Shown: one piece after another, positions 1 to 40,884 of the stretch | Layout of the letters: every line of letters begins with the position of its first letter | How positions within the stretch are numbered: position 1 is the stretch's first letter | DNA from: a virus | UHGV virus genome: UHGV-2008032 | DNA length: 40,884 nt | Strand: one strand, 5' to 3' | Notes under the pieces: generated by a model | Seen by the model: the letters and a program-made list of their open reading frames with translations, nothing else | What the model was told of the DNA's origin: nothing | Databases searched by the model: none | Program-made: the position numbers and the translations under genes

Positions 1-641
1 CAGCCGAAACCGACGCAGAGCTGCGCATTCGGCAGGGGCAAAGCGTCGCGCTACCATCGATCACACCGTTTGAAGGTGTCGACGGTGCAATAGCTAACGT
101 TGCTGGCGTGACACGTCACAAGCTGTATGAGAACGACACGGGGGCAACCGACAGCAACGGGCTGCCGCCGCACTCAATTTCCGCCATCGTCGATGGTGGG
201 GATGTTACCGAAATAGCCCAGACCATCAGGGGGAATAAAGGGCAGGGAACGGCAACCTACGGGACAACTTCTGTCACGGTGCCGGATACTTACGGTAATC
301 CTCACGTCATCAGTTTTTCACGCTCTACCGATGTGCCAATTTTCGTAGCCATTACCCTGAAAGTTTTTACCGGGTATACCTCTCAAATCGGCGAGCAGAT
401 CAAACAGGCTGTTGCCGACTATATTAACGGCCTGACAATTGGCGACGACGTTCTGCTGAGCCGTATTTATTCCCCGGCAAACCTTGGTGTTGTGAGCGGC
501 GGTAATGCCCGATATTACGACATTCAGGAGCTGCTCATCGGCAAATCCTCTGACTCAGTCGCAAGCGGAAATATCGATATTGCTTATGACGAATCTGCGT
601 CATGCGTTGCGAGTCACGTCACTATCACGGTGACCTCATGA
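1..641 (+). CDS. Baseplate J-like protein, C-terminal part (5' truncated by window start)
   Basis: Frame open from position 3 with no start codon; stop TGA 639-641; sits before gpI-like, fibre and Tfa genes as in P2 V-W-J-I-H-G. Confidence 0.6.
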   Translation, partial: AETDAELRIRQGQSVALPSITPFEGVDGAIANVAGVTRHKLYENDTGATDSNGLPPHSISAIVDGGDVTEIAQTIRGNKGQGTATYGTTSVTVPDTYGNPHVISFSRSTDVPIFVAITLKVFTGYTSQIGEQIKQAVADYINGLTIGDDVLLSRIYSPANLGVVSGGNARYYDIQELLIGKSSDSVASGNIDIAYDESASCVASHVTITVTS

Positions 642-1318
642 GCAAATACACCGAACTGATCACTAACTACCATGCTACCAAGCCACTCTTTTTTGACCAT
701 ATAGATCTGAGCACCCGCCCGCTGATTGATGTGTCCAGCACTATGTCAGGGCTTATAACAGCCTTCGATATCGATACTGCTGTCGGTGTACAGCTCGACA
801 TCCTCGGTCTGTGGATCGGACGCAGTCGCATAGTCAGCCAGCCAATTAGCGGAGTTTATTTCAGCTGGGACACTGACGGGCTTGGGTATGACCAGGGCAT
901 CTGGCAAGGGCCATATGATCCTGATTCTGGCTATACGACGCTAAGCGATGAGACGTACCGCATCATTCTGAAAGCGAAAATCGCTATCAACAACTGGGAC
1001 GGTCGGAACGACTCTCTGCCTCCCATCCTTGACGCTGCTACCGCAGGCTCAGGCCTGAGGATGCAGATCGTCGACAACCAGGACATGACGATTTCGGTCT
1101 GGGTTTTCCCTGAAACTGATATTTCTGATGTGTCTCTCGAACTGATCGCCGCTATCAAACAGGGCTATCTCACCGTTAAATCAGCTGGCGTATGGGCCGG
1201 TGATGTTGAAACGCCTTCGGTAGAAACACCGTCAGAAGGCTCTAAATTCTTTGGGTTTGATATGGATAACGAATACATCGGCGGGCTCGATGTTGGAGCA
1301 TGGGGGACTTTACTCTAA
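638..1318 (+). CDS. Baseplate/tail protein, P2 gpI-like (DUF2313-like)
   Basis: ATG 638 overlaps upstream stop (ATGA); position between J-like and tail fibre genes. Confidence 0.5.
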   Translation: MSKYTELITNYHATKPLFFDHIDLSTRPLIDVSSTMSGLITAFDIDTAVGVQLDILGLWIGRSRIVSQPISGVYFSWDTDGLGYDQGIWQGPYDPDSGYTTLSDETYRIILKAKIAINNWDGRNDSLPPILDAATAGSGLRMQIVDNQDMTISVWVFPETDISDVSLELIAAIKQGYLTVKSAGVWAGDVETPSVETPSEGSKFFGFDMDNEYIGGLDVGAWGTLL

Positions 1319-2199
1319 TGGCAACAAATAACTTTAAAGCGTTCGCGCTTGATCCTAACGCTAACGTCATGTCACAGGCAGACTGGGAAGCGCTTCCGGC
1401 GCTGCTGTCTGGTTTTACTGCCGGGAAGGCCTCCAGTGCGCAGGTTAACAAGGCGTTGCGGCAGAGCAGTACCATGGCAGCTGTTATCGCGCAATTCATG
1501 GCTGATAAAACAGGACAGGATGTACTGGATAATGGTAACACCAGCCAATTAGAGGCGATATTTGCCAGTGCAATCCAGGGGCGTCTAATCAATGTCCGTG
1601 TGTTTACATCATCCGGGACTTACACGCCAACCAATGGAACAAAGTCGATTATCGTCGAAGTGCAAGGAGGAGGCGGAGGTGGTGGTAATGCCAAGGCCAC
1701 TTCGTCCACCACATATACATTGACCTCATCGGGAGGGGCTGGTGGGTATGCTAAATCCAGACTTACCAATCTTGCCGCCTCTTATTCTGTAACTGTAGGA
1801 GCAGGAGGCGCGGGAGGTGTTTCTGGAGGGCAGTCAGTTTTTGGCTCTATTACATGCGGAGGAGGAGGTGCTGGCAGCCAAATAGGCGGGTCTTATACAG
1901 CATCGAGCAGTGTAGTAACACTTGGCGCATCAGGAGGCGATGCTTCGGGTGGCAATATAGTTAATGTTCCTGGTTCGAGTGCCGATCCGTCACTTTTAAT
2001 CGCTGGCGGGGCTGTGTCTGCTGTTGGTGGAAATTCAGTCATCGGTACTGGTGGGAAAGGTGCCGGTTCTTCTTCTGCTACCGGACTTCCTGGAACACTA
2101 GGCGGCGGTGGTGGTGGTGCTAATGCCGCTGGAAATACTACGTTAATTGCTGGCGGTAAAGGCGGTGACGGTATTGTTATAATTTGGGAGTTTGCATGA
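1318..2199 (+). CDS. Tail fibre protein with glycine-rich C-terminal repeats
   Basis: ATG 1318 overlaps upstream stop (TAATG); N-terminus MATNNFKAFALDPNANV...ASSAQVNKALRQ typical of fibre N-domains; C-terminus rich in GGxGG repeats; followed by Tfa. Confidence 0.6.
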   Translation: MATNNFKAFALDPNANVMSQADWEALPALLSGFTAGKASSAQVNKALRQSSTMAAVIAQFMADKTGQDVLDNGNTSQLEAIFASAIQGRLINVRVFTSSGTYTPTNGTKSIIVEVQGGGGGGGNAKATSSTTYTLTSSGGAGGYAKSRLTNLAASYSVTVGAGGAGGVSGGQSVFGSITCGGGGAGSQIGGSYTASSSVVTLGASGGDASGGNIVNVPGSSADPSLLIAGGAVSAVGGNSVIGTGGKGAGSSSATGLPGTLGGGGGGANAAGNTTLIAGGKGGDGIVIIWEFA

Positions 2200-2623: not shown

Positions 2624-2732
2624 TCATACGTGGTAAATCGCCTTTCACTATCTTGCGTCATGTGCCATTGAGTTATGCAATGTGAATGCGGCAATGTACA
2701 TGTAAAACAGTTAGTTAAAAGTGATTCTACTA

Positions 2733-2778
2733 ATTCGTAATGCGAAGGTCGTAGGTTCGACTCCTATTATCGGCACCA
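2733..2778 (+). other. attP-like core: 3' 46 nt of a tRNA-Thr(CGU) gene (anticodon loop through CCA), not an intact tRNA
   Basis: ATTCGTAATGCGAAGGTCGTAGGTTCGACTCCTATTATCGGCACCA folds as anticodon loop TTCGTAA, T-arm GTAGG/TTCGACT/CCTAT and acceptor 3' strand plus CCA; upstream sequence has no acceptor or D-arm; integrase stop lies 15 bp away. Confidence 0.65.
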
Positions 2779-2792
2779 CTAACCACGCGGGT

Positions 2793-3956
2793 TCACGCGA
2801 TATTCACCAGTTCAGCAAAAGCGCCTTGTGCCATATTTGTGCCATTCCCCGCCAGAAATGAGTCGATTTGCATGGCATGCTGCGTCAGGTGATTCGGTGC
2901 CAGATGGGCATAACGCTGTACCATCTCGATACTTTCCCACCCGCCCATTTCCTGTAGCGCACTGAGTGGCACGCCGGACTGTACAAGCCAGCTTGCCCAG
3001 GTGTGCCGCAGGTCATGGAAGCGGAAATTTTCTATTCCCGCCCGCCTTAACGCTGCTCGCCATGCCGTGTTAGCATCAGACCGCATTTTGCGCACTGCCT
3101 TTGTTCTCGTTCCATCCGGGCGAACGGATGATTCAGTGTGAACAAAGACCCACCGGTTATGTTTCCCCAGCTGCTCCCGCAGCACCTTACAGGCCGATTC
3201 GTTCAGGGCGACCCCAATCGCCCTTCCTGCTTTCGCGTCCTCGGGGTGAATCCACGCGACCTTCCTCTGCATATCAATTTGTGACCACTCCAGATCGGTG
3301 ATGTTCGACCTGCGCAGCCCCGTCGCCAGTGCAAAAATAACAACTGGCTTCATATGCTCGGGAAGTTCCCGGATCAGGTTCGCCGCTTCCTCTTTGGTTA
3401 GCCAGCGAATACGCTTATTTTTCGGCACCGGGCATTTGATGTTCGGCGCCTTGGCTATCCATCGCCATTCGTTGGCCGCACATCGTAACAGCGCCCGGAT
3501 GAAAGCAAGGTGCGTCGCCTTCGTCGCCAGCGACGCTGGTTTATCCTTAAATTCAGGAACCGGCTTACCTCTTCGCAGCAGGCTGTCCCGTTTCGCCTCC
3601 CAGTTCATTCGATGTTTGCGATTAACCATCGAACTCACCGCCGACAAGATCCTGTCTTCCGTGATTGCTGACAGGTCCATTCCTTTGAAGTGCATTCTCC
3701 AGAATCCGATCCGGCTTTTGTCATCGTCCAGGCTTTTCTTGTGCTGCTTTTCGTTAAGCCAGCGAACGCACGCTTCATCGAACGTTCTCGGCTTAAACTC
3801 ACCCATCTTATCAACTCGCCATGCTTCAGCTTTCAGCTGATCATAGAGCTCCTGCGCTTGCCTTTTGTCCGTTGTCCCAAGAGACCGTCTAATTCGACTT
3901 CCACCAGGCGTAACGAAGTCGCAGTGCCACGTACCGGCACGTTGTTTGATTGACAT
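2793..3956 (-). CDS. int: Tyrosine integrase
   Basis: 387 aa; N-terminal arm-binding-like domain; C-terminal HDLRHTWAS ... VQRYAHL catalytic motifs; adjacent to att core. Confidence 0.9.
2827..2841 (+). repeat. Arm-type repeat TGTGCCATATTTGTG (P' arm, inside int 3' end), tandem with TGTGCCATT
   Basis: Exact copy of 2609..2623 on the other side of the core. Confidence 0.5.
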
Positions 3957-10402: not shown

Positions 10403-11044
10403 TCAGGAGAATTTCATCATCATCTGCACTGCTACGCCGATTATCTTGCAGTTGCCGTCGATTGGGATCAACGGATAGGCAGGGTTAAGCCCTTTCAGGT
10501 ATTTGTTACCGCCATCAATGATTAGCTTCTTGAACGTGGCTTCATTAGCATCTGTCAGCTTCGCAACTACCAGGCTTCCATTAACGGCTTCCTTTCCAGT
10601 GTCGAACAGAACCAGCATACCCTCAGGAACGCTAAGGCCGGTAGGAGCTGTCATTGAGTCGCCCTGAACCCTGAGCCAGAAGGCGTCACCGACAACGTGA
10701 CAATCTGATTCATACCACTCATCCACTGCCTGAGGGTTGTACGGCTCTACGGCCTCACTCCATGCACCTGCGCTAACCCAGCTAATCAACGGAAACTTTT
10801 CCCCTGGCTTGTATTGTCCCTGATAGTTGTCGCCAAAAAGCAGTTCTGCCGGAGCGACACCCAAAGCTTTAGCTATTACCTCTGCGTCATCAACACTAAC
10901 GCTTCTGGTTCCTGATTCATAGTTGCCGATCCGAGATTGTGAAGCCCAGCCGCAAAGCTCCGCAAGAGCCTTCTGTGTAAGCCCTTTATCTTCCCGTAAT
11001 CGCTTGATACGCGCGGCGATAGTTTCTGTTCTGTTCATGCGCAT
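10403..11044 (-). CDS. cI: CI-like repressor (HTH plus LexA-like S24 autopeptidase)
   Basis: N-terminal XRE-type HTH; C-terminal GDSM serine and downstream lysine; divergent from cro; -10-like TATAAA abuts the ATG, so the mRNA may be leaderless. Confidence 0.85.
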   Translation of the reverse strand: MRMNRTETIAARIKRLREDKGLTQKALAELCGWASQSRIGNYESGTRSVSVDDAEVIAKALGVAPAELLFGDNYQGQYKPGEKFPLISWVSAGAWSEAVEPYNPQAVDEWYESDCHVVGDAFWLRVQGDSMTAPTGLSVPEGMLVLFDTGKEAVNGSLVVAKLTDANEATFKKLIIDGGNKYLKGLNPAYPLIPIDGNCKIIGVAVQMMMKFS

Positions 11045-11785: not shown

Positions 11786-11932
11786 ATGACAAAACAACTC
11801 AGTCCTTACCAGGACAAAATTCACAAACACATACTACGTGATCGCTTCCTGTCCAGCTTCAAGCAGCCTGGTCGATTCCGGGCTGAGTTGGAAAAAGTGA
11901 AGCTGATGCAGAAGGAGAAAGGTCATGAGTAA
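11786..11932 (+). CDS. Small hypothetical protein (48 aa) overlapping the O-like start
   Basis: Hand-translated; AGGAG 5 nt upstream of ATG; 8-nt overlap with the next gene. Confidence 0.3.
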
Positions 11933-16681: not shown

Positions 16682-16863
16682 ACGCCACAATTCAAACGAT
16701 ACCAGAGCTTCTTATCCAGACACGAGGCAATCAGACCGAAGTGGCGAGGATGCTTTCCTGTGCAAGAGGAACAGTGCTCAAGTACAACCGAGACAGCAAA
16801 GGTGAGCGTCACGTAATAGTTAACGGCGTCCTGATGGTAACGCCAGGCAAAAAGGGAAGATGA
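16678..16863 (+). CDS. ninH: NinH-like small DNA-binding protein
   Basis: ...YGNQTEVARMLSCARGTVLKY... matches the lambda NinH pattern. Confidence 0.6.
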   Translation: MNATIQTIPELLIQTRGNQTEVARMLSCARGTVLKYNRDSKGERHVIVNGVLMVTPGKKGR

Positions 16864-17808: not shown

Positions 17809-17836
17809 TTGAAAACGAGTTTTGAAACTGCATAAT
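17809..17836 (+). promoter_or_regulatory. Candidate promoter TTGAAA-16-CATAAT upstream of the cargo leader
   Basis: -35 at 17809..17814, -10 at 17831..17836 in an AT-rich spacer. Confidence 0.35.
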
Positions 17837-17947: not shown

Positions 17948-17977
17948 ATTGGCTCAGTGCCACCAGGTGAACACCGT

Positions 17978-23589: not shown

Positions 23590-23591
23590 GT

Positions 23592-27305: not shown

Positions 27306-27319
27306 ATCGCAGGTAAACC

Positions 27320-28540: not shown

Positions 28541-28544
28541 TCCA

Positions 28545-29048: not shown

Positions 29049-29059
29049 GGAACAGACGA

Positions 29060-30001
29060 ATGATTACTTTTGATCAGGCAACAGTTGATAGCTCTGGTGC
29101 CTTTCTCATCGGGGAGCTGGAGCGACTCGACCAGACGCTGAACCTGCCACTGGTGGGGTACACCTGGACCCGCGATATCCAACTGCGTGAAGATGTCTCC
29201 ATCGCAGATGACATTTCCAGCTGGACGAATACCAGCTTCGCCGCTGCGGGTACTGGCGCAAATCCGAATGGCAAAAACTGGGTAGGCAAAGACTCAACCG
29301 CTATTGCTGGCGTAAACGTGGATATCGGCAAATCCGGTAACCCGCTGAATCTCTGGGGCATGGAACTGGGCTGGACCGTTGTAGAGCTGGCAGCAGCTCA
29401 GCAGGTAGGTCGCCCGATTGACACCCAGAAGTACGACGGGATGCAGCTCAAATGGCAGATGGACAACGACGAGCAGGTGTATGTTGGCGATTCCGCATTA
29501 AACCTGAAAGGCCTTGTTACCCTGAACGGTGTTCCTGTCAACAACGCTGCCAAAACGTGGGCAACCTCAACACCGGACGAAATCCGCGCAAGCATTAACC
29601 AGGTGCTGTCTGATGCGTGGGCCGCTTCTGGTTACTCTGTGGTTCCGCGTGATTTGCTGATCCCGCCAGAGCAGTTTGCTCTGTTGTCCAGCATCATCGT
29701 TTCATCTGCGGGTAACCAGTCCCTGTTGACGTACCTTCAGACCAACACCATCAGCTATCACCAGAACGGTGTTCCGCTGAATATCCGCGCGGTTAAATGG
29801 CTGAAAGGCCGTGGTGTGGGGAATAAGGATCGCATGGTTGCGTACACCAACGATAAAAAATACGTCCGCTATCCGCTGGTGCCGTTGCAGAGCGTTCCTA
29901 TCCAGTATCGCGGTCTGTATCAGATTGCGACCTACTACGGCAAGCTCGGTGCGGTTGAGCCAGTGTACAAAGAAACCATTTCGTACGTTGATGGCATTTA
30001 A
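29060..30001 (+). CDS. Major capsid protein
   Basis: 313 aa in the expected position; followed by a strong GC hairpin. Confidence 0.6.
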   Translation: MITFDQATVDSSGAFLIGELERLDQTLNLPLVGYTWTRDIQLREDVSIADDISSWTNTSFAAAGTGANPNGKNWVGKDSTAIAGVNVDIGKSGNPLNLWGMELGWTVVELAAAQQVGRPIDTQKYDGMQLKWQMDNDEQVYVGDSALNLKGLVTLNGVPVNNAAKTWATSTPDEIRASINQVLSDAWAASGYSVVPRDLLIPPEQFALLSSIIVSSAGNQSLLTYLQTNTISYHQNGVPLNIRAVKWLKGRGVGNKDRMVAYTNDKKYVRYPLVPLQSVPIQYRGLYQIATYYGKLGAVEPVYKETISYVDGI

Positions 30002-30007
30002 CAGCCA

Positions 30008-30027
30008 TATGGCCCCCTTGCGGGGCC
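30008..30027 (+). promoter_or_regulatory. Stable hairpin just after the capsid gene
   Basis: 8-bp stem ATGGCCCC/GGGGCCAT with loop TTGC; no U-run. Confidence 0.4.
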
Positions 30028-30042
30028 ATTAAGGATGACCCA

Positions 30043-30264
30043 ATGGCAAAAAATAATGCAGTAATACACGTACATACCCCGTTTGTGCTCACGCTTCCCG
30101 ACGGTTCGCGGCGCGAGTTTGTTAAAGGCCGTCATGCAGTGGAGGAAGACGTTGCCACGCACTGGTTCACTCGTGCGCACGCGGAAGTATCCGTTGGCAA
30201 AGCCACAGACGCGCGTAACGAGGTAAAAAATGCCAAAGAATCAAAGTCTGCCAACGGTAAGTGA
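30043..30264 (+). CDS. Small head-associated hypothetical protein
   Basis: 73 aa; AAGGA 8 nt upstream of ATG. Confidence 0.4.
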
Positions 30265-30637
30265 TTTTCGCCGCGACTTCCCGCAGTTTGTTGACCCTGC
30301 CAAATATCCCGAAGCGCAAATCCAGTTTCGTCTGAATCTGGCCGATGAACTGCTGAGCGAAAACGTCACCGGCAAAAAGTTGTTTCCGTACTTTGCCGGG
30401 TTGTTCGTTGCGCACTACATGACGCTCTGGGCGGCAGACAGCAGAGCGATGCTGGCTGGTGGTCCGGGCGGTTCAACCAATGGTGTTCAATCCTCTAAGT
30501 CCGTTGACAAGGTAAGCGTCAGCTATGACACCAGCGCGACGCTGAATCCTGATGCAGGTTTCTGGAATAACACCCGATATGGCGTTGAATTTTATCAGTT
30601 GATCACGATGTTCGGTGCAGGTGGTCGCCAGCTATGA
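30230..30637 (+). CDS. Head-tail connector/adaptor-like protein
   Basis: 135 aa; GAGGT upstream of ATG; position between capsid and tail genes. Confidence 0.4.
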
Positions 30638-31188
30638 GTTTCAAAAGCGGTGTAACAACGAGGGTGGATAACGCTAAGGCCATTCTGGATGCGCTCAGGT
30701 CGCTAACCAAAAAGGATGTGCTGGTCGGCATCCCTTCGGAAGACAGCGAGCGTGAAGATGTTCAGTTTGGTAATGCCGGGATCGGCTATGTCAACGAATA
30801 CGGCTCACCAGCGCAAAACATCCCCCCACGCCCGCACCTGACCCCCGGCGTTAAATCGGTAGAGGAACAGACAGTGCCGCAGCTCAAAGCAGCGGCGCAG
30901 GCTGCGCTTGATGGAAATGCGGTGGGGGCGGAAAGAGCGCTCAACCGTGCCGGAACGCTGGCCGCTAATGGCGTCAGGCGTTACATGACTATTACCGGCT
31001 TTACACCGCTTGCTGATAGCACCGTTGAAGCCCGCGCACGTCGAGGTCGCAAAGGGGCGAAAGCTGAGCTTGCCCGACGCGCTGCTGGTGAGTCTCCTGG
31101 AACCGATCTGGTGAAACCGCTAATCGACACCGGGCAATATCGCAGAGCTATTACCCATATTGTGAGGGATAAAGATGCCGACTCTTGA
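30634..31188 (+). CDS. Head-tail joining hypothetical protein
   Basis: 184 aa, overlapping-stop arrangement typical of morphogenesis operons. Confidence 0.4.
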
Positions 31189-31561
31189 TGTAACAGACGT
31201 GCTTTTTGACCCCGATTTTTGCGACTTCAACCTGTGGGTAACGCGTCGCGCGCAAACGGTGGACGATGACGGGATCGGCAGCGACAGCGAAGTTAAAACG
31301 CAGTTTGCCGGGGTTGTTACTGTTGACCGCTCCCTGGAAAACCGCCGCATGCAGGCCGGGCAGGTTATCAGCGGCGCGATTCTCATCGTGACAACTGAGC
31401 GGCTGACACAGGGGCAGACTGGCCGTGATGCCGATATCGTGACGTATCAGGGCCGTGATTATCGTGTGACATTCGTCGACCCGTATACCGCTTACGGTGC
31501 TGGCTTCGTCCAGGCGCATTGCGAACTGTTGCCGTTTGATGGGGGTACTCCCGTTGAGTAA
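31175..31561 (+). CDS. Head-tail joining hypothetical protein
   Basis: 128 aa, overlaps neighbours. Confidence 0.4.
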   Translation: MPTLDVTDVLFDPDFCDFNLWVTRRAQTVDDDGIGSDSEVKTQFAGVVTVDRSLENRRMQAGQVISGAILIVTTERLTQGQTGRDADIVTYQGRDYRVTFVDPYTAYGAGFVQAHCELLPFDGGTPVE

Positions 31562-32102
31562 TAACACCAGCACAGAGCGCGGCTGGCTGACACCCACCAG
31601 CGGCGATCCGGCTTATGACGAAGCGCTCGACAGGCTGTTAAGCCAGTGGATGCGTAACGTTTCCGGTCTGTCTGCCGGGATGGTTCGTCCGCGCTGGCAG
31701 AAAAATCAGCCGCCACTGCCACCCGTTGAAACGAACTGGTGCGCGTTTGGCGTTACCGGGTTGCTCATTGATAACAACCCTGCATTCACCGGGCAGACTG
31801 AAGAGGGCGCTCAGCTCTGGAGGCATGAAACGTTCGAGTGCATGGCGTCGTTCTATGGTCCGGCGGGGATGGTGTATGCGTCCCGGTTTCGTGACGGTAT
31901 ATCTGTACCGCAGAACAACGCAGCACTGAATGCGCTGGGGCTGTCTCTTGGCGATTACACAGGTCTGACTCCCTTCCCCGAACTTATCAACCAGCAATGG
32001 GTTCGCCGTTACGACATGACGGTGCGACTGCGCCGGAAGGTTGTCCGCGAGTATGGCATCAAATCGCTGGTGGAAGTGCCAGTCACCTTTTTTGGAGAAT
32101 AA
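31539..32102 (+). CDS. Tail completion-like hypothetical protein (start uncertain)
   Basis: ORF frame from 31497; ATG 31539 or TTG 31554 are the plausible starts. Confidence 0.35.
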   Translation: MGVLPLSNNTSTERGWLTPTSGDPAYDEALDRLLSQWMRNVSGLSAGMVRPRWQKNQPPLPPVETNWCAFGVTGLLIDNNPAFTGQTEEGAQLWRHETFECMASFYGPAGMVYASRFRDGISVPQNNAALNALGLSLGDYTGLTPFPELINQQWVRRYDMTVRLRRKVVREYGIKSLVEVPVTFFGE

Positions 32103-32105
32103 ACT

Positions 32106-33266
32106 ATGACGCAGGGCTTACCTGTATCCAACGTTGTAAACGTTGATGTGATCATCTCGCCGAAAGCGGCTACTGGTCGTAACTTCGGCGCATTGCTAAT
32201 CCTTGGCTCTTCCACTGTCATTCCGGTGACAGAACGTACTCGCCTATATGCTTCCATTGAGGACATTGGCGAAGACTTCGGTGTCGACAGCCCGGAATAT
32301 AAAGCAGCGCAGGTTTTCTTCAGCCAGTCACCGAAGCCGACACAGGTTTATGTTGGTCGCTGGGCGAAGACGCTGAGTTCTTCCGAGAGTGGAGATACTG
32401 AAACTATCGTGCAAGCCGTTAATGCCTGCCTGCAATATACCAACTGGTATGGGCTGGTTGTCGCTGATGATGTTGTCGCTGGTGGCGATGTGCTTGATGC
32501 TGATGACGTGATTGAGGTTGCTAAACTCATCGAAGCGTCCAGCCTGAGCCGCATTTTCGGGGTAACATCTGCTGACGCCGAGATTATCAGCACGACTTCG
32601 ACGACTGATGTTGCGTCGAAATTAAAGGCTGGCAAGTATTCCCGTACCTTTGTTCAGTATTCCACCAGCAGCCCTTATGCGGCTGTTTCAGCTTTCGGTC
32701 GCGCGTTTACTGTCAATTTCAACGGCAGCAATACCACCATTACCCTGAAATTCAAACAGGAACCGAGCGTAACCTACGAAACGCTGACGGTAGGACAGGC
32801 GGCGGCTGTGGATGCGAAGAATGCGAACGTGTTCGTGTACTACGCCAACGACACGGCGATCCTGCAACAGGGCGTCATGGCGAACGGTGACTTCTTCGAC
32901 GAGCGCCACGGGCTCGACTGGTTGCAGAACTACGTTCAGACCAACCTCTATAACCTGCTTTACACCAGCACCACCAAAATTCCGCAGACTGATGCCGGTG
33001 TGACCCGTCTGCTTTCCAACGTTGAACAGTCCATGGATCAGTCCGTCACGAACGGTCTGGTAGCGGCTGGCGTGTGGAATGGTGGACCTATCGGACAGCT
33101 GAATTCCGGCGATACGCTGACCAAAGGTTATTACGTGTATGCGCAACCTCTTTCAGAACAGGCGCAGGCCGACCGAGAAGCTCGCAAAGCACCGTTAATT
33201 CAGGTGGCCTGTAAGCTGGCTGGCGCAGTTCATTATGCCGATGTGCAGATCAACGTGGTTCGCTAA
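32106..33266 (+). CDS. Tail sheath protein
   Basis: 386 aa immediately upstream of the tube gene. Confidence 0.55.
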
Positions 33267-33276
33267 GGAGCGATAA

Positions 33277-33717
33277 ATGGCAACTTATTCTTTTCTCGAT
33301 GTAACCGCGTCGCTCACCGGGCCGACCGGCGTTATCGATCTTGGTCAGGGTTCTGCCAACTCTGAGGAAGGTATCACCCAGACCATGGGCGGCAACAAGA
33401 ACACTATGACCATCGGTGCCGATGGCGAAGTGATGCACAGCCTGCACGCCGATAAGTCAGGCACCATTACGGTGACGCTGCTGAAAACCTCCCCGGTGAA
33501 CAAGAAGCTGTCTCTGGCGTATAACGCGCAAAGCCAGTCCTCTGCCACCTGGGGCAATAACGTGATCGTCATTCGCAACACGGCATCGGGTGATATTTCT
33601 ACTGCGCGTTCGTGCGCATTCCAGAAACAGCCTGATTTCAATAACGCCAAAGAGGGCGGGACTGTTTCCTGGGTGTTCGACTGCGGCAAGATTGACCAGC
33701 TGCTCGGGGAGTTTTAA
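33277..33717 (+). CDS. Tail tube protein
   Basis: 146 aa between sheath and chaperone genes. Confidence 0.55.
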   Translation: MATYSFLDVTASLTGPTGVIDLGQGSANSEEGITQTMGGNKNTMTIGADGEVMHSLHADKSGTITVTLLKTSPVNKKLSLAYNAQSQSSATWGNNVIVIRNTASGDISTARSCAFQKQPDFNNAKEGGTVSWVFDCGKIDQLLGEF

Positions 33718-33720
33718 CGC

Positions 33721-34146
33721 ATGGAATTCGAAATTAAAGGCGTGAAATATCGCACCGCAAAGCTCAGCGTTTTCGAACAGCTGAAGGTGTCCCGCAAGCT
33801 GTTGCCGGTGCTGGCCGGGATGGTTTCTGACTTTCGGAGCGTTCAGGAGAAGATCAGCAGCAAAGACACCGAAGGCGCGATGGCTACCATCCTGCCAAAG
33901 ATTGCCAATGCTGTGTCCGATCTGAGCGATGGCGACGTGGACGCTATCCTGTTCCCCTGCCTTTCCGTTGTTTCACGCGAGCACATGAAAGGCTGGGTGC
34001 CGGTCTGCCAGCATGGCGAAATGGCGTTTGACGATATCGACCTGCTGACCATGCTGCAACTGGTGGCGCGGGTGGTCGCCGACTCGCTGGGAAATTTTTT
34101 GCAAGGACTCCCTACCAGCGAGACGCCCACCCCGCCAGCGGAATAA
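33721..34146 (+). CDS. Tail assembly chaperone (zero-frame product)
   Basis: 141 aa directly upstream of the tape measure gene; contains a slippery heptamer near its 3' end. Confidence 0.6.
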   Translation: MEFEIKGVKYRTAKLSVFEQLKVSRKLLPVLAGMVSDFRSVQEKISSKDTEGAMATILPKIANAVSDLSDGDVDAILFPCLSVVSREHMKGWVPVCQHGEMAFDDIDLLTMLQLVARVVADSLGNFLQGLPTSETPTPPAE

Positions 34147-34334
34147 CCTTCAACAGCCTGCCGGGCGGTGAAGATTTTATTCTTCGTCCGGCGCTTGCCT
34201 TCCAGATTGACCAGAAAGACCTTAACAGCGGTGCGGTAGACCTCTGCCGCATCGCGCTTCTCAATGACTACCTCGACATGCGCGAGGATAACGACGCCCG
34301 GGTAGATAAATGGAGAGCGGCCAATGAGCGGTAA
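34095..34334 (+). other. Programmed -1 frameshift site T_TTT_TTG and -1 frame extension of the tail chaperone
   Basis: Heptamer 34095..34101 in the zero frame (aaT TTT TTG); -1 frame is open from there to TAA 34332..34334, which overlaps the tape measure start. Confidence 0.55.
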
Positions 34335-36339
34335 CGCAGATACGATTAAAGATTTCCTTGTTTCGCTGGGATTCGATATCGATCAGGCTGGCGCTAATAA
34401 GTTTGAAGCCGTGCTGAAAGGCGTTACCGCGAACGTTCTGAAGGTCGGCGCGGTGGTGAAAGGCGCAGCGCTGAGCATTGTCGGATTTACCACCCAGATC
34501 GCGAATGGTCTGGATAAAATTTACTGGGCATCCCAGCGGACGGGGGCCAGCGTCCAGGGCATCAAAGCGCTGGGCTATGCCGCATCGCAAACTGGCGCCA
34601 GCGCTGAGTCGGCCATGTCCTCCCTCGAAGGGTTGGCTGGCTTCATGCGTAGCAATCCGGGGGCGGAAGGGTTCCTGAACCGTCTTGGTGTCCAGACCCG
34701 CGATGCCAGCGGAAAGATGCGTGATACTGCTGCCATCTTTACTGGCGTTGGGCAAAAGCTCAACAACATGCCGTATTACCGCGCGAAGCAATACGCGCAG
34801 ATGCTCGGCATCGATGAAAACACGCTGATGGCGATGCGCAGAGGGATGGGGCAGCTCAGTTCTGAGTACGCGTTGACGGCAAAGCGTATTGGTTTTAATG
34901 CTGAGTCAGCGGCTAAACAGTCCAATATTTTCATGACCTCCATGCGTAATCTGACGATGACGCTTGGACAGGCGAAAGACAAGATTGGCTCTAACCTAGC
35001 TGGTGGCCTTGCTGGCAGCATTGATAACTTCCGCAGGCAGATACTCGACAACTGGCCGAAGATTGAAGCGGTCATCACGAAGATCATCAAAGGAATTCTC
35101 TGGGCAGGTGACGCGATTACCCGCGTGTTATGGCGAACTGGGCAAGCTGTTGAGGGTGTGATCGCCTGGTTCAAAAAGCTGAACCCAGCCACGCAGCAGC
35201 TTATCGCATTGTTCAGTGGGCTGTTGGTTGCATGGCGGCTGCTAAATACCGCTTTCATGTCATCACCCTTGGGCATGATAACGACGCTTATTATTGCACT
35301 TGGTCTGCTCTTTGATGATTACCAGACGTGGAAAGAAGGTGGCAAAAGCCTGATTGACTGGGGGAAATGGAAGACTGAAATTGATCAGGCCGTCAAAATG
35401 ATTGGTGACCTGAAAAAGACTGTTACGGACCTGACAAAAGCGCTGGCTAAGTTGCTCGGTATTGACCCCAAGTCATGGTCCCTAAAGTGGGATTTTAGCA
35501 ACTTCATTTCGCAAATGGGTGAGTTCGGCAAGATGCTGAACATGATCGCCGACCTGCTCAACGCCATTAAAGATGGCCGCTGGGCTGATGCCGCCAGCAT
35601 CGGCAAACAGATGCTTAATCAGGGCAGCGAAAATCCGTCAGCGATGCCGATGGTAACAGACAGCGCCAACGGAACCGCCGACTGGATTAAAGAGCACTGG
35701 GGATTCGATCCTCGCAGCGTGGGCCGAACGGTGCGCGGCTGGTTCGGTGATGATGAGCCTGAACAGCTCGGCCAGTCAGTTAAGCGGCCACAGCCAACCA
35801 AAGCAGGCTCTGAACTGCTGGGATGGATGCAGCCGATGTTTACCAACCTGGAACAGCTCTACCGGCTTCCGGAGGGGTTATTGCGCAGCGTGGCCATAAC
35901 GGAATCGGGCGGTAATCAGTTCGCCGTTTCAGGCGCTGGCGCGAAAGGTCTGTTTCAGTTTATGGATGGCACGGCGCGCGACATGGGCCTGCGTGGCAAT
36001 GATGTATTCGACCCGGAAAAGTCAGCTCAGGCAGCCGCTAAGTACCTCAGCCAGCTGTTGCGGCAGAACGGCGGAGACCTTAGCAAAGCACTGGCATCAT
36101 ATAACTGGGGGATCGGGAATGTTAAGCGTTATGGAATGGGGCTAATGCCGCAGGAAACGCGCAACTACATTCCGAAAGTAATGAGCAATATGCCCACCAG
36201 CGCCCCGGTGATTCAGCAGGAAACGAATATTAACATCCACGGTGTTTCCGATCCGCGTGAAGCTGCCCGTTTGACTGTTGACCGTCAAAAGGGCGTGAAT
36301 TCACAGTTAACCCAGCAACTCCCCGCAGGACCGAGATAA
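34324..36339 (+). CDS. Tail tape measure protein with C-terminal lytic transglycosylase-like domain
   Basis: 671 aa; central hydrophobic segments; C-terminal ...ITESGGNQFAVSGAGAKGLFQFMDGTARDMGL...NWGIGN... SLT-like. Confidence 0.75.
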   Translation: MSGNADTIKDFLVSLGFDIDQAGANKFEAVLKGVTANVLKVGAVVKGAALSIVGFTTQIANGLDKIYWASQRTGASVQGIKALGYAASQTGASAESAMSSLEGLAGFMRSNPGAEGFLNRLGVQTRDASGKMRDTAAIFTGVGQKLNNMPYYRAKQYAQMLGIDENTLMAMRRGMGQLSSEYALTAKRIGFNAESAAKQSNIFMTSMRNLTMTLGQAKDKIGSNLAGGLAGSIDNFRRQILDNWPKIEAVITKIIKGILWAGDAITRVLWRTGQAVEGVIAWFKKLNPATQQLIALFSGLLVAWRLLNTAFMSSPLGMITTLIIALGLLFDDYQTWKEGGKSLIDWGKWKTEIDQAVKMIGDLKKTVTDLTKALAKLLGIDPKSWSLKWDFSNFISQMGEFGKMLNMIADLLNAIKDGRWADAASIGKQMLNQGSENPSAMPMVTDSANGTADWIKEHWGFDPRSVGRTVRGWFGDDEPEQLGQSVKRPQPTKAGSELLGWMQPMFTNLEQLYRLPEGLLRSVAITESGGNQFAVSGAGAKGLFQFMDGTARDMGLRGNDVFDPEKSAQAAAKYLSQLLRQNGGDLSKALASYNWGIGNVKRYGMGLMPQETRNYIPKVMSNMPTSAPVIQQETNINIHGVSDPREAARLTVDRQKGVNSQLTQQLPAGPR

Positions 36340-36965
36340 TGGATATTTTATCAGCGATTTTTCGCCAGCAATCCCGGCGAATTGGCCTGCTGATCCCCAG
36401 CGTGGTCGTCTCCGAAAAGCATTCTGATGCGCTCGAAATTACTGAGCATCCGGTGGAGAAGCCAACAACGAATAGCGCGTCGGGTTTCATCGCCGATCAT
36501 GCGTATAAGCGTCCCAGCGAAGTCACAATGGAATGCGGCTTTGCTGGTGGCGGTTCGTTGCTGGACTTCATCGATACATCTTCAATCGGCCTCAGCGCCG
36601 GGCTTAGCCCAAAAGAAACATACCAAAAGCTGCTGGATATGCAGCTTGAGCGCGTGCCATTCGATGTGGTTACCGGGAAGAGGGTGTACACCAATATGCT
36701 GGTGCGTGCCATTGAGGTGACGACCGATAAAACCAGCGAGAACGTGCTGAACTGCACGCTTACCCTGCGTGAAGTCATCATAACGCATACAAAAAATGTC
36801 ACCGTTGCTGATAAATCCGATATGCAGGACGGGGTTAGTACATCTGCGGTGCAGAATTCCGGGACTAAATCCACCACCCCAGTAAATGAATCGGTAATTA
36901 AGTCAACAGGGTGGTTTGATGGACTAAAAGGAACCAGTCTTGGTAACTCTATAGGTATCCAATGA
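36339..36965 (+). CDS. Tail/baseplate assembly protein (hypothetical)
   Basis: 208 aa, follows the tape measure gene. Confidence 0.35.
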   Translation: MDILSAIFRQQSRRIGLLIPSVVVSEKHSDALEITEHPVEKPTTNSASGFIADHAYKRPSEVTMECGFAGGGSLLDFIDTSSIGLSAGLSPKETYQKLLDMQLERVPFDVVTGKRVYTNMLVRAIEVTTDKTSENVLNCTLTLREVIITHTKNVTVADKSDMQDGVSTSAVQNSGTKSTTPVNESVIKSTGWFDGLKGTSLGNSIGIQ

Positions 36966-37267
36966 ATGTAACTGAAATCCCTTTATCGCCGGATAACCAG
37001 CTATTTCGCATTCAGTTAGCAGAGACAACATACACGCTGAGAGTCATTTGGCGTGATTCTGCTGGCTGGATTCTGGATGTACAAGATAGCAGTGGCGAAC
37101 CGCTTCTTTCTGGCGTGCCGCTGGTAACCGGTGTAAATCTTCTTGAGCAATATCCTCAACTAGGTATTAACGGGGCGCTGCTCGTTGGCTGCGATGTAGG
37201 CGCACCGGACGAGCCCACCAAAACCAACCTCGGCACATACAGCCACCTCATTTTCGTGCAGGAGTAG
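36962..37267 (+). CDS. Tail/baseplate assembly protein (hypothetical)
   Basis: 101 aa, overlapping-stop arrangement. Confidence 0.35.
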   Translation: MNVTEIPLSPDNQLFRIQLAETTYTLRVIWRDSAGWILDVQDSSGEPLLSGVPLVTGVNLLEQYPQLGINGALLVGCDVGAPDEPTKTNLGTYSHLIFVQE

Positions 37268-37269
37268 AA

Positions 37270-38334
37270 ATGTCTCTTAACTGGATGCGCCATTTTGAGT
37301 TGCAGCTGTTGGACCAGAACGGGCAGGGTATTTCCCTGTCTGATTTTAAGGTCACGTTCCAGATCGAGTGGGCAGATACACGCTGGCCGCGCGTGGCAAA
37401 CGTGAAAATTTACAACCTTTCGACCGATACCACGAACAAGATACTGGGGCAGGAATTTGCCAAAATTCGCATCATTGCCGGGTATGACGGTATTGCGCCG
37501 GATGTTGATGCGAGCCAGGTTGGTGTCGCCCGGGAGATTTCACCAGACCAGGTAGGGCAGGTGAACGGTCAGAACTACGGCCTGATATTTGACGGTGATA
37601 TTCGCTTCACCGTCACCGGGAAGGACAACATCACCGATTCCTGGGTGCTGATTCAGGCCATCAGTAACCACGAAGCGTTCCTCTACGCGACTACCATCAC
37701 CACGCTTGCCGCTGGTTATACCGTTGCGGACCTGCACCGGGCGACTATGCAGGATTTCAACGCGTTCGGCGTGACGCAGGGCATTACCGGTGACTTTCCT
37801 GATACCGTGTTTCCTCGTGGCCGTGCGATTTATTCATCCACCCGTAACGTGATGGATAATATTGCTGCGCAGTGCAAAGCGACATGGCAGCTGGTGGATG
37901 GTCAGGTCCAGATGGTGCCGGAGGATAAATATATTCACGAAGCCATTGTGTTGAATGCCGATACTGGCCTGATCGGTATGCCGCAACAAACGATGGGCGG
38001 CGGAGTAAACGTGCGGTGCCTGATAAACCCAAACATCCGTATTAATGGTCTTATCCAGCTCGATCAGGCTTCGGTGTACCGCGCTGCGCTCGGCAATAGC
38101 GAAATCGCTCAGTCGCCCGGGCGTATCACCGAAACGGAAGAGAACGGCAACCGCGTGCTGACAGGTACGACGTCACAGGCTGCCAGCATTGCGACAGATG
38201 GCGTTTATATCGTCAAAGCTATCGACTATACTGGCGACACCAGAGGTCAGGCGTGGTACATGGATTTGATGTGTTTTGCGCGTGGGGCTCGCGAGCTTTA
38301 CAGCCAGAATGCCATGCTGAAAACCAACTATTGA
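37270..38334 (+). CDS. Putative baseplate hub / tail protein, P2 gpD-like
   Basis: 354 aa; size and position after the tape measure gene. Confidence 0.4.
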   Translation: MSLNWMRHFELQLLDQNGQGISLSDFKVTFQIEWADTRWPRVANVKIYNLSTDTTNKILGQEFAKIRIIAGYDGIAPDVDASQVGVAREISPDQVGQVNGQNYGLIFDGDIRFTVTGKDNITDSWVLIQAISNHEAFLYATTITTLAAGYTVADLHRATMQDFNAFGVTQGITGDFPDTVFPRGRAIYSSTRNVMDNIAAQCKATWQLVDGQVQMVPEDKYIHEAIVLNADTGLIGMPQQTMGGGVNVRCLINPNIRINGLIQLDQASVYRAALGNSEIAQSPGRITETEENGNRVLTGTTSQAASIATDGVYIVKAIDYTGDTRGQAWYMDLMCFARGARELYSQNAMLKTNY

Positions 38335-38344
38335 GGTGAATATT

Positions 38345-38689
38345 GTGAAGCGTGTAGCAGCCGTAATTTTTCTGCTGACTTCGTTTTTATCCTTGAGTGC
38401 ATTTGCTGATTCACAATGTGGTAACTACAGGGTGCACTGGGCGGATGATGGGCTTGCAAGAATTAATGGCGCAAAACCAGAAACTCAAAAAATCACTTTT
38501 CTGAAAAAAGAAGGTGATTATAACAATGTAAAATTTGAGTGGGTTGTTGCTACCGATCAACCCGGTCGCTGGGTGGGAATGGAGTTCATTGGGCGCAACG
38601 GAAAAGCCATTCTCAATGTCCAGTGGCTGCAAGCCAGCATGAATGCGCCGCGTCAGTATGCAACATACGACTGCCGAAAAGTAAAATAG
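38345..38689 (+). CDS. Secreted protein (signal peptide, two Cys) within the tail cluster
   Basis: GTG 38345 with GAGGTG 6 nt upstream; MKRVAAVIFLLTSFLSLSAFA then DSQC...; Cys near each end of the mature protein. Confidence 0.5.
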   Translation: MKRVAAVIFLLTSFLSLSAFADSQCGNYRVHWADDGLARINGAKPETQKITFLKKEGDYNNVKFEWVVATDQPGRWVGMEFIGRNGKAILNVQWLQASMNAPRQYATYDCRKVK

Positions 38690-38707
38690 CCCGCCAGATA
38701 GGCGGGC
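38689..38707 (-). terminator. Hairpin between convergent accessory genes (terminator-like for the minus-strand gene)
   Basis: 7-bp stem GCCCGCC/GGCGGGC with loop AGATA; U-rich tract follows on the minus strand. Confidence 0.45.
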
Positions 38708-38712
38708 ATGCG

Positions 38713-39003
38713 TCAAAAATATTGAGCTTTAATTATAATAAACACAATAATTACGAACAGGATGTTTCTAATTATTTTTTGCTTATGAGTAAGTTGTTTT
38801 TTTTCTGTCGATTTCCCGGGAGAGTAAAGGTTAGTGGTATGCGACAGCCCCGTGCCGGGAAGGCCATTTGTCATCTTTACGCCTTTTTTCCCGATGTTAA
38901 TGGTGGAACCTTTACCACCAATTGAAGTGCTTACTCCGCTTTTGCTAATGTTGATCGCGAGTCCGGGCGCAATCCGGATTCTTTTGCGAAATCTAAAGCC
39001 CAT
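38713..39003 (-). CDS. DUF4236-like protein with C-terminal transmembrane helix
   Basis: MGFRFRKRIRIAPGLAINISKSGVSTSIGGKG...GLPGTGLSH signature; C-terminal IIRNILFVIIVFIII; AT-rich context; AGGAG 6 nt upstream of ATG. Confidence 0.55.
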   Translation of the reverse strand: MGFRFRKRIRIAPGLAINISKSGVSTSIGGKGSTINIGKKGVKMTNGLPGTGLSHTTNLYSPGKSTEKKQLTHKQKIIRNILFVIIVFIIIKAQYF

Positions 39004-39191
39004 TTGTTACTCCTGTAGTCAAGAATGCGATGGTGCAGGTCCACTCTATGGCGGCTTCATGGCTGAAATTGATTTTTAATGCTTACTTGTTGCAAATATA
39101 TCCTAATACACCTTGTGAATATGTGCCATTGCAGCGGAAAAGCCTTACTTCACACTGATGTAGCTTAGTTACTAAGAGATAATTGATACCA

Positions 39192-39215
39192 AACCAGCTT
39201 CGGCTGGTTTTTTTA
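39192..39215 (+). terminator. Intrinsic terminator 10 nt upstream of the baseplate spike gene
   Basis: 7-bp stem AACCAGC/GCTGGTT with loop TTCG followed by TTTTTTT. Confidence 0.65.
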
Positions 39216-39225
39216 TGGGGTTTTT

Positions 39226-39966
39226 ATGCCAATTCCTACTCAATCACAGATCGGCGGCGAGCAGCAGACCGCGCAGGCCATTGCCGATTCGGTGTCTACT
39301 CAGATGCGCGTAGCGATGCCTGGCATCATTCAGTCGTTCGATCCTGACGCTGTAACCTGCACAGTAGAGGTGGCGCTTCGCGGTATTGTTGGCGACGACT
39401 CCACCGAATTAAAACCGCTGGTGGATGTGCCTGTCATCTTCCCGCGCGGAGGCGGTTGCACGCTGACCTTTCCGGTAAAAGAAGGCGATGAGTGCCTGCT
39501 GATCTTTGCCGACCGTTGCATCGATTTCTGGTGGCAGAGCGGCGGCGTTCAGGAGACCGTCGACCCGCGCCAGCATGACTTATCTGATGCGTTCGCCATC
39601 GTTGGCCCGCAGTCGCAAGCGCAAAAAATCAGCGGTATCAGTACCAGCGCCGCGCAGCTGCGAACCGATGATGGTGTGGCGTTCGTAGAGGTTTCCGCAG
39701 GACATAACATCACCGTTCAAACACCGGGCCAGCTCACGGCTACGGCTGAAGGTGGAACGACAATCACATCCCCGACTATCACGCTGAACGGCAACGTAAC
39801 GATTAATGGCAATCTGTCTCAGGGAATGGGAGAAAGTGGTGGTACTGCGACGATGCTTGGGCCGGTTACGGTAACGAATGATGTGACAGCTTCAGGTATA
39901 AGTGTCGCCACGCATAAACATGGCGGAGTTCAGACAGGCGGGGGAACTACTGGAGGGCCGCAATAA
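39226..39966 (+). CDS. Baseplate spike protein, P2 gpV-like
   Basis: 246 aa; C-terminal ...VATHKHGGVQTGGGTTGGP; precedes gpW-like and J-like genes. Confidence 0.55.
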   Translation: MPIPTQSQIGGEQQTAQAIADSVSTQMRVAMPGIIQSFDPDAVTCTVEVALRGIVGDDSTELKPLVDVPVIFPRGGGCTLTFPVKEGDECLLIFADRCIDFWWQSGGVQETVDPRQHDLSDAFAIVGPQSQAQKISGISTSAAQLRTDDGVAFVEVSAGHNITVQTPGQLTATAEGGTTITSPTITLNGNVTINGNLSQGMGESGGTATMLGPVTVTNDVTASGISVATHKHGGVQTGGGTTGGPQ

Positions 39967-40319
39967 TGCGATACCGACGAGAAGATGCTGACGGCGATTA
40001 CACTTTCGGGCAAGGTGACGACACCTTCCTTATCGACAGTCCGGAATGTGTCGCCCAGGCCGTAAAAACCCGTTTCGAGCTCTGGCGCGGTCAGTGGTTT
40101 CTCGATCTGACGGAAGGCACGCCGTATGTTCAGTCAGTGCTTGGGAAACAGCGATCAGACGTCTACATCCTGGCTATACGCGAACGCATACAGGACACGC
40201 CGGGCGTTCTGTCGATTCTTTCCTTCGATACCAATTATGACGGCACCAGCCGCCGCGTCACTTTCACTTCCTCCATTGACACAATCTACGGCCAGACGAC
40301 TGTAACAAGCGAGGCATAA
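39966..40319 (+). CDS. Baseplate wedge protein, gpW/gp25-like
   Basis: 117 aa; position between spike and J-like genes; overlapping start and stop. Confidence 0.5.
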   Translation: MRYRREDADGDYTFGQGDDTFLIDSPECVAQAVKTRFELWRGQWFLDLTEGTPYVQSVLGKQRSDVYILAIRERIQDTPGVLSILSFDTNYDGTSRRVTFTSSIDTIYGQTTVTSEA

Positions 40320-40884
40320 ATGGCTTTGAACCTCGACACGCTGGGGCTATCGGCAACGGTAACCGCCCAGGGGATTAGTGCGCCTGATTACCAGACAATC
40401 CTCGATACACTGACCAGCTATTTCAGGCAGATTTACGGTAGTGATGCCTACCTCGAACCAGACAGCAAAGATGGGCAAATGGTCGCGCTGGTGGCTCTGG
40501 CTGTGCATGATGCTAACAATACCGCTATCGAGATCTACAACTCGTTTTCACCGACGACAGCGCAGGCCGCAGCGCTTAGCAGCAATGTGAAAATTAACGG
40601 GATCACGCGAAAAGTAGCGACAAACTCTACTGCTGACCTTCTGTTAACCGGTACGGCGGGCACGACTATCACGAATGGCTCCGCACGGGATAAAAACGGC
40701 ATTATCTGGAATTTTCCCGCGAGTGTAGCAATCGGGGTTGATGGTACTGTGCTGGTGACGGCCACATGTGCGAATAGCGGTTCGGTTGCGGCGATGGCCG
40801 GGACTATTACCACCATTAACACACCGACTCGCGGCTGGGTGTCGGTAACCAACCCTGCTGCGGCTATTGTCGGTTCACCAGCCG
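40320..40884 (+). CDS. Baseplate J-like protein, N-terminal part (3' truncated by window end)
   Basis: ATG 40320 overlaps upstream stop; 188 codons open to the last base; joins in frame with 1..641. Confidence 0.6.
   Translation, partial: MALNLDTLGLSATVTAQGISAPDYQTILDTLTSYFRQIYGSDAYLEPDSKDGQMVALVALAVHDANNTAIEIYNSFSPTTAQAAALSSNVKINGITRKVATNSTADLLLTGTAGTTITNGSARDKNGIIWNFPASVAIGVDGTVLVTATCANSGSVAAMAGTITTINTPTRGWVSVTNPAAAIVGSPA

Follow-up and report, generated by a model that had tools for sequence, protein, structure and literature searches.

A coliphage genome opened inside its baseplate J gene is very probably complete and cyclically permuted

Salmonella phage SEN34 is a temperate phage that combines lambdoid early, regulatory and lysis genes with a contractile-tail structural module (PMC5261728). 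It is assigned to Brunovirus, within the lambda-supercluster 'temperate 26', and together with Citrobacter phage Omnitron and Hafnia phage yong1 it is among the described relatives of the genome analyzed here, UHGV-2008032 (40,884 bp as presented; hereafter the window, meaning the whole stretch at full length). Escherichia relatives also exist (vB_EcoM-606R2/611R5/683R1/689R2); the window TerL shares 98% identity with the TerL of vB_EcoM-606R2, a phage on which a literature search found nothing. The window follows this plan of SEN34 and is a temperate, SEN34-like myovirus whose early genes are lambdoid. The J gene and the attachment region are listed with the sections that treat them; the remaining features are as follows.

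1–40878, no strand: proposed complete genome of a SEN34-like temperate myovirus as one unit, opened at an arbitrary point in J
638–1318, + strand: DUF2612/Wedge-1 baseplate protein, start overlapping the J stop (ATGA)
1318–2199, + strand: tail fibre with glycine-rich domain
2199–2594, + strand: tail fibre assembly protein (Caudo_TAP), the last gene ahead of attP
10403–11044, − strand: CI-like repressor (HTH and Peptidase_S24)
11925–14250, + strand: replication module, with O-like initiator, iteron-like repeats (12312–12412) and DnaB-like helicase
16860–17381, + strand: Q antiterminator
20249–21466, + strand: lysis cassette (holin, endolysin, Rz-like)
23035–26680, + strand: packaging genes, TerS (Terminase_2), TerL (540 aa) and portal (Phage_portal_3)
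26697–36339, + strand: head and tail genes, head part (MuF-like, Pa193_gp24-like, cement, major capsid and connector proteins)
26697–36339, + strand: head and tail genes, tail part (sheath, tube, chaperone, tape measure)
36339–40319, + strand: baseplate genes upstream of J (Dit-like hub, plug, E217_gp41-like)
38713–39003, antisense within the baseplate block: DUF4236 gene
39226–39966, + strand: gpV-like spike
39966–40319, + strand: sheath initiator

The gene set is complete, comprising int, cI, O/DnaB, Q, lysis, TerS/TerL, portal, head, tail, baseplate and fibre genes. The cargo genes have no match in NCBIfam, and PDB sequence searches with the two cargo proteins returned none.

The window ends and the J gene

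The J gene is divided between the two ends of the window.

40320–40884, + strand: 5' part of J, start ATG 40320; its last 6 nt (40879–40884) duplicate window 1–6
1–641, + strand: 3' part of J, stop TGA 639–641; bases 1–6 are the same as 40879–40884
40320–40878 joined to 1–641, + strand: true J gene, 1200 nt, 399 aa

The open frames at both ends are as originally predicted. From the ATG at 40320 a frame extends for 188 codons plus 1 base to base 40884, and a frame from base 3 stays open up to the TGA at 639–641, while the remaining two frames are closed close to both ends. Joining the ends bluntly, head to tail, keeps the frame and yields a 401-aa product. An in-frame join arises by chance in 1 of 3 cases and is weak evidence alone; homology is what counts. 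When the joined product is aligned to baseplate J proteins, the check suggested with the original prediction, it gives a single match to Pfam Baseplate_J (PF04865; E 4e-14, 52.9 bits, above the gathering cut-off of 21.1). This match pairs residues 85–344 with profile positions 4–252 of 255 in one stretch, and the domain runs straight across the junction at residue 189. The 399-aa form aligns with the solved wedge protein 9zd7 gp88 without a gap at the junction (E 2e-35), and its alignment with 7kh1 gp16 spans residues 11–397. The neighborhood is that of a baseplate wedge locus, with a sheath-initiator gene upstream of J and a DUF2612/Wedge-1 gene downstream (Pfam DUF2612/Wedge1 at 638–1318, E 5e-45). 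The upstream 117-aa gene product gave no match at E≤0.01 in our own Pfam scan; on identical contigs it carries PF10934 Sheath_initiator, and in RefSeq it is named 'contractile injection system sheath initiator'. The window ends form one colinear J protein and not two fragments, and this J is a predicted baseplate wedge protein. If the window were instead a linear fragment, its ends would be unrelated partial J-like genes with other DNA beyond them; the one observation in favor of this is that the window stops on either side. Beyond the Pfam domain that crosses it, the junction is unbroken in 55 E. coli genomes (those in which at least 80% of the 2-kb junction query was covered in one piece) and in phage records, and contigs at 100% identity pass through it. 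The linear reading is effectively refuted and its probability is negligible.

The same six bases, CAGCCG, form both the start and the end of the window (1–6 = 40879–40884), a coincidence expected by chance in about 1 in 4096 cases. Aligned with the prophage of E. coli S1, whose J is 399 aa, the blunt join shows a 6-nt insertion exactly at the junction; this places a 6-nt overlap between the window ends and gives a real product of 399 aa (…GSPAETD…, not …GSPAAAETD…). Because 6 is a multiple of 3, the 401-aa and 399-aa versions are both in frame. The prediction that the two ends belong to one J gene, continued in frame, stands, but the join is not blunt: the proposed codon assembled from 'g' and 'ca' and the 401-aa length are artefacts of the overlap. 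The collapsed J product is identical to the J called on 3 other contigs of the same phage.

A real blunt join would mean a tandem CAGCCGCAGCCG in J, that is, a two-alanine insertion giving 401 aa, on a 40,884-bp circle opened between the two copies. The ends do join bluntly in frame, the two extra alanines would fall in a linker of low conservation immediately ahead of the conserved ETD-ELR motif, and hexamer slippage is known in nature. However, the collapsed junction has 37 exact matches in IMG/VR and the duplicated junction 0, four assemblies that cross the junction at 99.995–100% identity carry one CAGCCG copy, all relatives have a 399-aa J, and there is a single copy in all of them and in five near-identical assemblies. 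A real duplication also needs a break at exactly one position of about 40,884. We regard it as very improbable, and the collapsed, 399-aa form of J is used below.

Sister assemblies and circular topology

Five other assemblies carry the same phage nearly base for base, and the length of each exceeds 40,878 bp by a plausible assembly k-mer.

k119_19209: 40,997 bp = 40,878 + 119
JGI Ga0495776_008131: 40,977 bp = 40,878 + 99
NODE_448: 40,933 bp = 40,878 + 55
BAEC15 scaffold_476: 40,933 bp = 40,878 + 55
k127_16078: 41,005 bp = 40,878 + 127

For both MEGAHIT contigs the excess equals the k given in the contig name, and NODE_448 has an exact 55-nt terminal overlap. The overlap was checked directly in NODE_448, and the other values (55, 99, 119 and 127 nt) come from length and coordinate arithmetic, with the contig ends of the JGI and k127 contigs verified. 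Four of the five sister contigs span the collapsed junction with 0 gaps, and the five jointly cover 40,878/40,878 positions, without gaps and with no more than 1 mismatch. The six linearisation points are all different (window 1, 2680, 12803, 28462, 37157 and 39752). The five are independent as assemblies but not necessarily as samples, and some may re-assemble one sample or related ones.

In circular contigs produced by de Bruijn graph assemblers (MEGAHIT, SPAdes), a terminal overlap of one k-mer is the usual signature of a complete viral genome. The window resembles such contigs in its arbitrary breakpoint inside a gene and in ends that repeat each other, but differs in the length of the overlap, which at 6 nt lies below any assembler k; this overlap looks like one that was incompletely trimmed. 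Completeness tools usually require a terminal repeat of 20 nt or longer, and a 6-nt repeat alone would fail such thresholds. A physical end inside J, of the cos or direct-terminal-repeat type, was considered and rejected; the breakpoints of the other assemblies are at different places, and ends of this type are found close to terminase genes.

Attachment site, excision and packaging

The attachment region follows the tail fibre assembly gene.

2733–2778, + strand: attP core, 46 nt that match the 3' end of tRNA-Thr thrW exactly
2793–3956, − strand: tyrosine integrase, 387 aa

An intact attP lies between the genes for tail-fibre assembly and integrase. The left arm corresponds to one end of an integrated relative in E. 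coli EC2001 and the right arm to the other, and in that relative the arms are ~43 kb apart. ARAGORN found no tRNA in the window; the att core is no more than a 46-nt piece of a tRNA, and it is the sole host-like DNA. Integrated relatives at thrW adjoin proA. Judging from the att anatomy, the phage would integrate and excise through integrase-driven recombination between the attP core and the thrW 3' end. Look-ups with the integrase and cargo genes returned only long chromosomal contigs; the look-up with TerL showed the ends of metagenome contigs. Two candidate lines of evidence were set aside: the exact attP string occurs in two IMG/VR contigs, but these are other phages that share the att/int region only, and the Omnitron record, although flagged circular, begins at the att core (its position 1 = window 2735).

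The sequenced DNA included the attP junction, which is why the genome closes as a circle, and this closure points to excised, replicating or packaged phage DNA rather than a simple integrated prophage. Two head-to-tail prophage copies at thrW, with an attP-like junction between them that the assembler collapsed, would give the same assembly graph as a free circle, namely a cycle through attP. Relatives are commonly integrated as prophages at thrW, and the end of the JGI contig coincides with the final base of the att core, a position that fits an attR branch and hence an integrated copy in that sample. Nevertheless, an internal repeat search of the window found none >35 nt, leaving no second copy of any segment above that length, and the window carries no host DNA apart from the core. 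All 7 contigs with the exact TerL in the collection fall in the 20–50 kb class (0 chromosome-sized), and attP reads come more commonly from an inducible temperate phage that excises and replicates. The J halves exclude a pair of related but distinct phages: they are adjacent in one gene, with 100% identity to single-copy contigs. Tandem prophages, which the original prediction had already called less parsimonious, are unlikely.

The five assemblies recover the attP-containing circle essentially without SNPs, and at least one of them is labelled human gut in its contig name. It is possible, though we advance it only tentatively, that a clonal SEN34-like coliphage is actively excising or replicating in the gut rather than persisting as a silent prophage. 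The position of the JGI contig end at the att-core boundary hints that integrated and excised forms coexist in that sample.

Packaging sequences could not be identified in SEN34 (PMC5261728). In the window, TerS belongs to Pfam Terminase_2, and TerL has no Pfam or NCBIfam match. The TerL nuclease domain resembles Sf6 gp2 (E 4e-27), and the full-length protein is 39% identical over 95% of its length to the TerL of the 9NA-like phage Solent; TerL is about equally close to 8dkr and to Pbunavirus-type terminases. The 9NA-like phages use pac-directed headful packaging (PMC8954984). On this TerL and TerS homology, headful (pac) packaging is the likely though uncertain mode, and virion DNA would probably be terminase-cut in this way and hence circularly permuted.

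With the topology read from other assemblies of the same sequence, we are highly confident that the window represents one complete, cyclically permuted genome of a temperate E. coli phage, with a true unit of 40,878 bp. The circle would have been opened at an arbitrary point in J, leaving 6 redundant bases at the two ends, and closing it through the overlap would restore the J wedge protein. The circular or permuted complete genome first proposed from the open ends is borne out by the junction contiguous in E. coli genomes, by sister contigs of 40,878 + k and by the intact attP. The J junction is an ordinary assembly feature with no new biology, and the earlier interpretation, although supported, is routine. 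The genome is best recorded as a 40,878-bp circular unit, with J annotated as one 399-aa protein in place of two truncated ORFs or a 401-aa product, and a better starting point for the record would be attP or a site ahead of the terminase genes. An end repeat of 6 nt, too short for standard completeness checks, can thus mark a complete genome when sister assemblies are available.

Comparison with known phages

The predicted J resembles the Baseplate J, gp47 and T4 gp6-type wedge proteins of simple contractile baseplates, for which solved structures include 9zd7 gp88, 9ndy gp023, 7kh1 gp16, E217 gp44 (8eon), Pam3 gp22 (7yfz) and Mu gp47 (9ki1). It shares with these a colinear alignment that includes the conserved ETD-ELR motif just past the junction. 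Nothing in it is otherwise notable, and 399 aa is typical for the short forms.

At the genome level, no deposited phage covers the window at species level. Omnitron aligns with 67% of the late region (92% identity) and covers only 52% of the 40,878-bp unit, and SEN34 matches only 37% of window 16000–40878 at 86% identity. The ICTV genus criterion is about 70% nucleotide similarity over the whole genome. Compared over the late region only, the window appears to fall short of this value for Brunovirus; we therefore describe it as sharing the architecture of that genus and do not file it there. It further differs from the SEN34 group in an early region that is mosaic with other lambdoid prophages, in a different cargo cassette and in an HNH endonuclease before TerS.

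The attachment site places the phage beside a different set of elements. In the Enterobacteriaceae, thrW is used by P22, Sf6, HK620 and CP4-6. Like these thrW-integrating phages and islands, the window has an attP core that is the 3' 46 nt of thrW, so that integration regenerates the tRNA; unlike P22, its virion module is that of a myovirus.

The baseplate J gene at the window ends

The two ends of the window lie within a baseplate J gene (J), which is divided as follows.

40320–40884, plus strand: 5' part of J, open from its ATG to the last base (188 codons and one base)
1–641, plus strand: 3' part of J, open from base 3 to a TGA at 639–641

Both open frames are as originally described, and the remaining two frames are closed near both ends. 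Joined bluntly head to tail, the two parts are in frame and code for a 401-residue product, to which Pfam Baseplate_J aligns as one stretch (residues 85–344, profile positions 4–252 of 255; E 4e-14, 52.9 bits against a cut-off of 21.1) spanning the junction at residue 189; the expectation that the joined product aligns as one J protein was thus borne out. One blunt join in three would be in frame by chance, and the weight of the predicted adjacency is carried by homology, not by the in-frame join.

The hexamer CAGCCG forms both the first six and the last six bases of the window. First, a 2-kb query spanning the junction finds single-piece matches in 55 E. coli genomes and in Citrobacter phage Omnitron, and the matched spans are 6 nt below the query length. 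Second, alignment to the E. coli S1 prophage, whose J is 399 aa, leaves a 6-nt gap exactly at the junction. Third, the single-copy junction string has exact matches in 37 IMG/VR contigs, and the duplicated string has none in that database. The true join therefore collapses the repeat; a genuine CAGCCG duplication would require the contig to have been broken at precisely that site, and conflicts with every other copy of the sequence. The true unit is accordingly 40,878 bp and J 399 aa (…VGSPAETDAELR…). The original prediction of a circular or permuted complete genome was correct in its interpretation, but its 401-residue product needs a 6-nt, two-residue correction, as the ends overlap. The 399-aa J aligns, with no gap at the junction, to the solved baseplate wedge proteins 9zd7 gp88 (E 2e-35), 7kh1 gp16 (residues 11–397), E217 gp44, Pam3 gp22 and Mu gp47.

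Recurrence of the phage in other assemblies

Exact-protein look-ups located the same phage, with 0–1 mismatches, in five further public metagenome assemblies, at least one of them labelled human gut; the five are independent as assemblies and may share samples.

Contigs carrying the phage (length; excess over 40,878 bp; where opened, in window positions)
ERZ27239493 k119_19209 (k119): 40,997 bp; 119; 12803–12921
JGI 3300045988 Ga0495776_008131 (JGI): 40,977 bp; 99; 2680–2778
ERZ1742070 NODE_448: 40,933 bp; 55; 37157–37211
ERZ28567694 BAEC15-1 scaffold_476: 40,933 bp; 55; 39752–39806
ERZ918452 k127_16078 (k127): 41,005 bp; 127; 28462–28588

The names of the two MEGAHIT contigs give a k equal to the excess, and NODE_448 has an exact 55-nt terminal overlap. 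The contig pieces match the collapsed unit full-length with no gaps and no mismatches, save one mismatch in k127. Four of the five (k119, JGI, NODE_448 and k127) cross the window junction, the J called on three is identical to the collapsed product, and jointly they cover all 40,878 positions. Linearisation points differ in all cases, including that of the window itself (opened at position 1). Such differing breakpoints are the standard signature of an assembly-graph cycle opened arbitrarily by each assembler, and the split in J is of the kind that routinely arises when a circular phage assembly is linearised. The recurrence reflects either the re-assembly of related samples or the wide sharing of a clonal gut coliphage. 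A linear contig carrying two unrelated J fragments is refuted by the single-piece matches in 55 E. coli genomes, the S1 alignment and contigs that run through the junction at 100% identity.

A tandem dilysogen, the alternative raised at the outset, would yield the same assembly graph, but nothing supports it as the source of the circle: the exact TerL occurs in seven contigs only, all of the 20–50 kb class and none chromosome-sized. Neither host DNA nor internal repeats longer than 35 nt were found in the window, which thus gives no sign of a second copy.

The attachment site, excision and packaging

2199–2594: tail-fibre assembly gene
2733–2778: 46-nt att core
2793–3956, minus strand: integrase

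Integrated relatives have the tail-fibre end at one extremity and the integrase end at the other: the S1 prophage terminates after its tail-fibre assembly gene, adjoining dacD, and in the EC2001 prophage the integrase adjoins tRNA-Thr thrW/proA, with the tail-fibre assembly gene about 43 kb off. In the window the two genes are adjacent; positions 2544–2778 match one end of the EC2001 prophage and 2733–3100 the opposite end, and the 46 nt common to both arms match the 3' end of thrW exactly. The window therefore holds an intact attP, whose core Int would recombine with thrW. Its gene order, judged by these comparisons, is that of the excised form, broken inside J.

The sequence closes as a circle through both J and attP. 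Since k exceeds the 46-nt core, assembly of a silent single prophage would run on into host flanks; the sequenced DNA probably included excised, replicating or packaged phage DNA. The JGI contig stops precisely at the final base of the att core, its 99-nt terminal k-mer being window 2680–2778. A circular path starting and ending at the att-core node is the expected product of an attP/attR branch, which suggests that this sample contains both integrated and excised copies.

A headful mode of packaging is probable: the nuclease domain of TerL is similar to Sf6 gp2; full-length TerL shares 39% identity with its counterpart in the 9NA-like phage Solent, from a group with pac-directed headful packaging (PMC8954984); and TerS is a Terminase_2 protein. 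The call is weak because Pbunavirus-type terminases are about as close, TerL lacks a family match, and the paper describing SEN34 (PMC5261728) identifies no packaging site. Circular assembly from intracellular DNA would be expected under any packaging mode. TerL itself (23592–25214) is clearly identified by PHROG 2 and PDB nuclease-domain matches; neither Pfam-A nor NCBIfam yields a match at E<=0.001, and no solved structure matches its N-terminal ATPase half.

Genome content and relation to known phages

Gene order, rotated to attP
1. int
2. P22/lambda-like early-left genes: Rad52-like, SSB, Abc2-like
3. CI-like repressor, cro/cII-like genes
4. O-like initiator with iterons, DnaB-like helicase
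5. nin region (NinB, RusA and others), Q
6. three-gene cargo cassette
7. holin, endolysin, Rz-like
8. Rha-like regulator, HNH endonuclease
9. TerS, TerL, portal, MuF-like
10. capsid genes, sheath, tube, tape measure
11. hub, plug, spike, sheath initiator, J, Wedge-1, fibre, fibre assembly protein

Inside the O-like initiator gene, a direct pair of 35-nt repeats (12312–12346 and 12378–12412; 94% identical, 66 nt apart) is likely an iteron-type origin, as in lambda. A DUF4236 gene (38713–39003, minus strand) lies antisense in the middle of the baseplate operon and is conserved, in the same position, in both the S1 and the EC2001 prophage. The HNH_3/His-Me finger endonuclease gene (22536–23033) directly upstream of TerS is present in some relatives and missing from others, the S1 prophage among them; it resembles a mobile homing endonuclease rather than the HNH protein of HK97-type packaging.

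The cassette (17822–19984; GC about 56% versus 47–49% nearby) lies between Q and holin, where lambdoid phages usually carry morons. It encodes an MptE-like protein (PHROGs phrog_4603 'alpha-2,3-sialyltransferase', E 9e-49; Pfam PF01973 below cut-off), a 313-aa protein (phrog_6804) with no match in Pfam, NCBIfam or PDB, and a methyltransferase (Methyltransf_23). Many E. coli prophages that have this structural module also carry the cassette, which may be a surface-glycan modification (lysogenic conversion) module. Two long opposite-strand ORFs overlap within the cassette (18352–19221, minus; 18523–19464, plus); public assemblies differ in which they call, and a PHROG match exists for the plus-strand ORF alone.

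None of the closest deposited phages covers the whole window: Omnitron is 92% identical across 67% of the late region and spans 52% of the entire unit, the vB_EcoM-606R2 group reaches 89% over 42%, and SEN34 86% over 37%. By the genus criterion, on the part tested, the phage falls outside Brunovirus. In Salmonella phage SEN34 the early genes are lambdoid and the tail is that of a myovirus (PMC5261728); the window genome has the same architecture and represents a new phage of this known kind.
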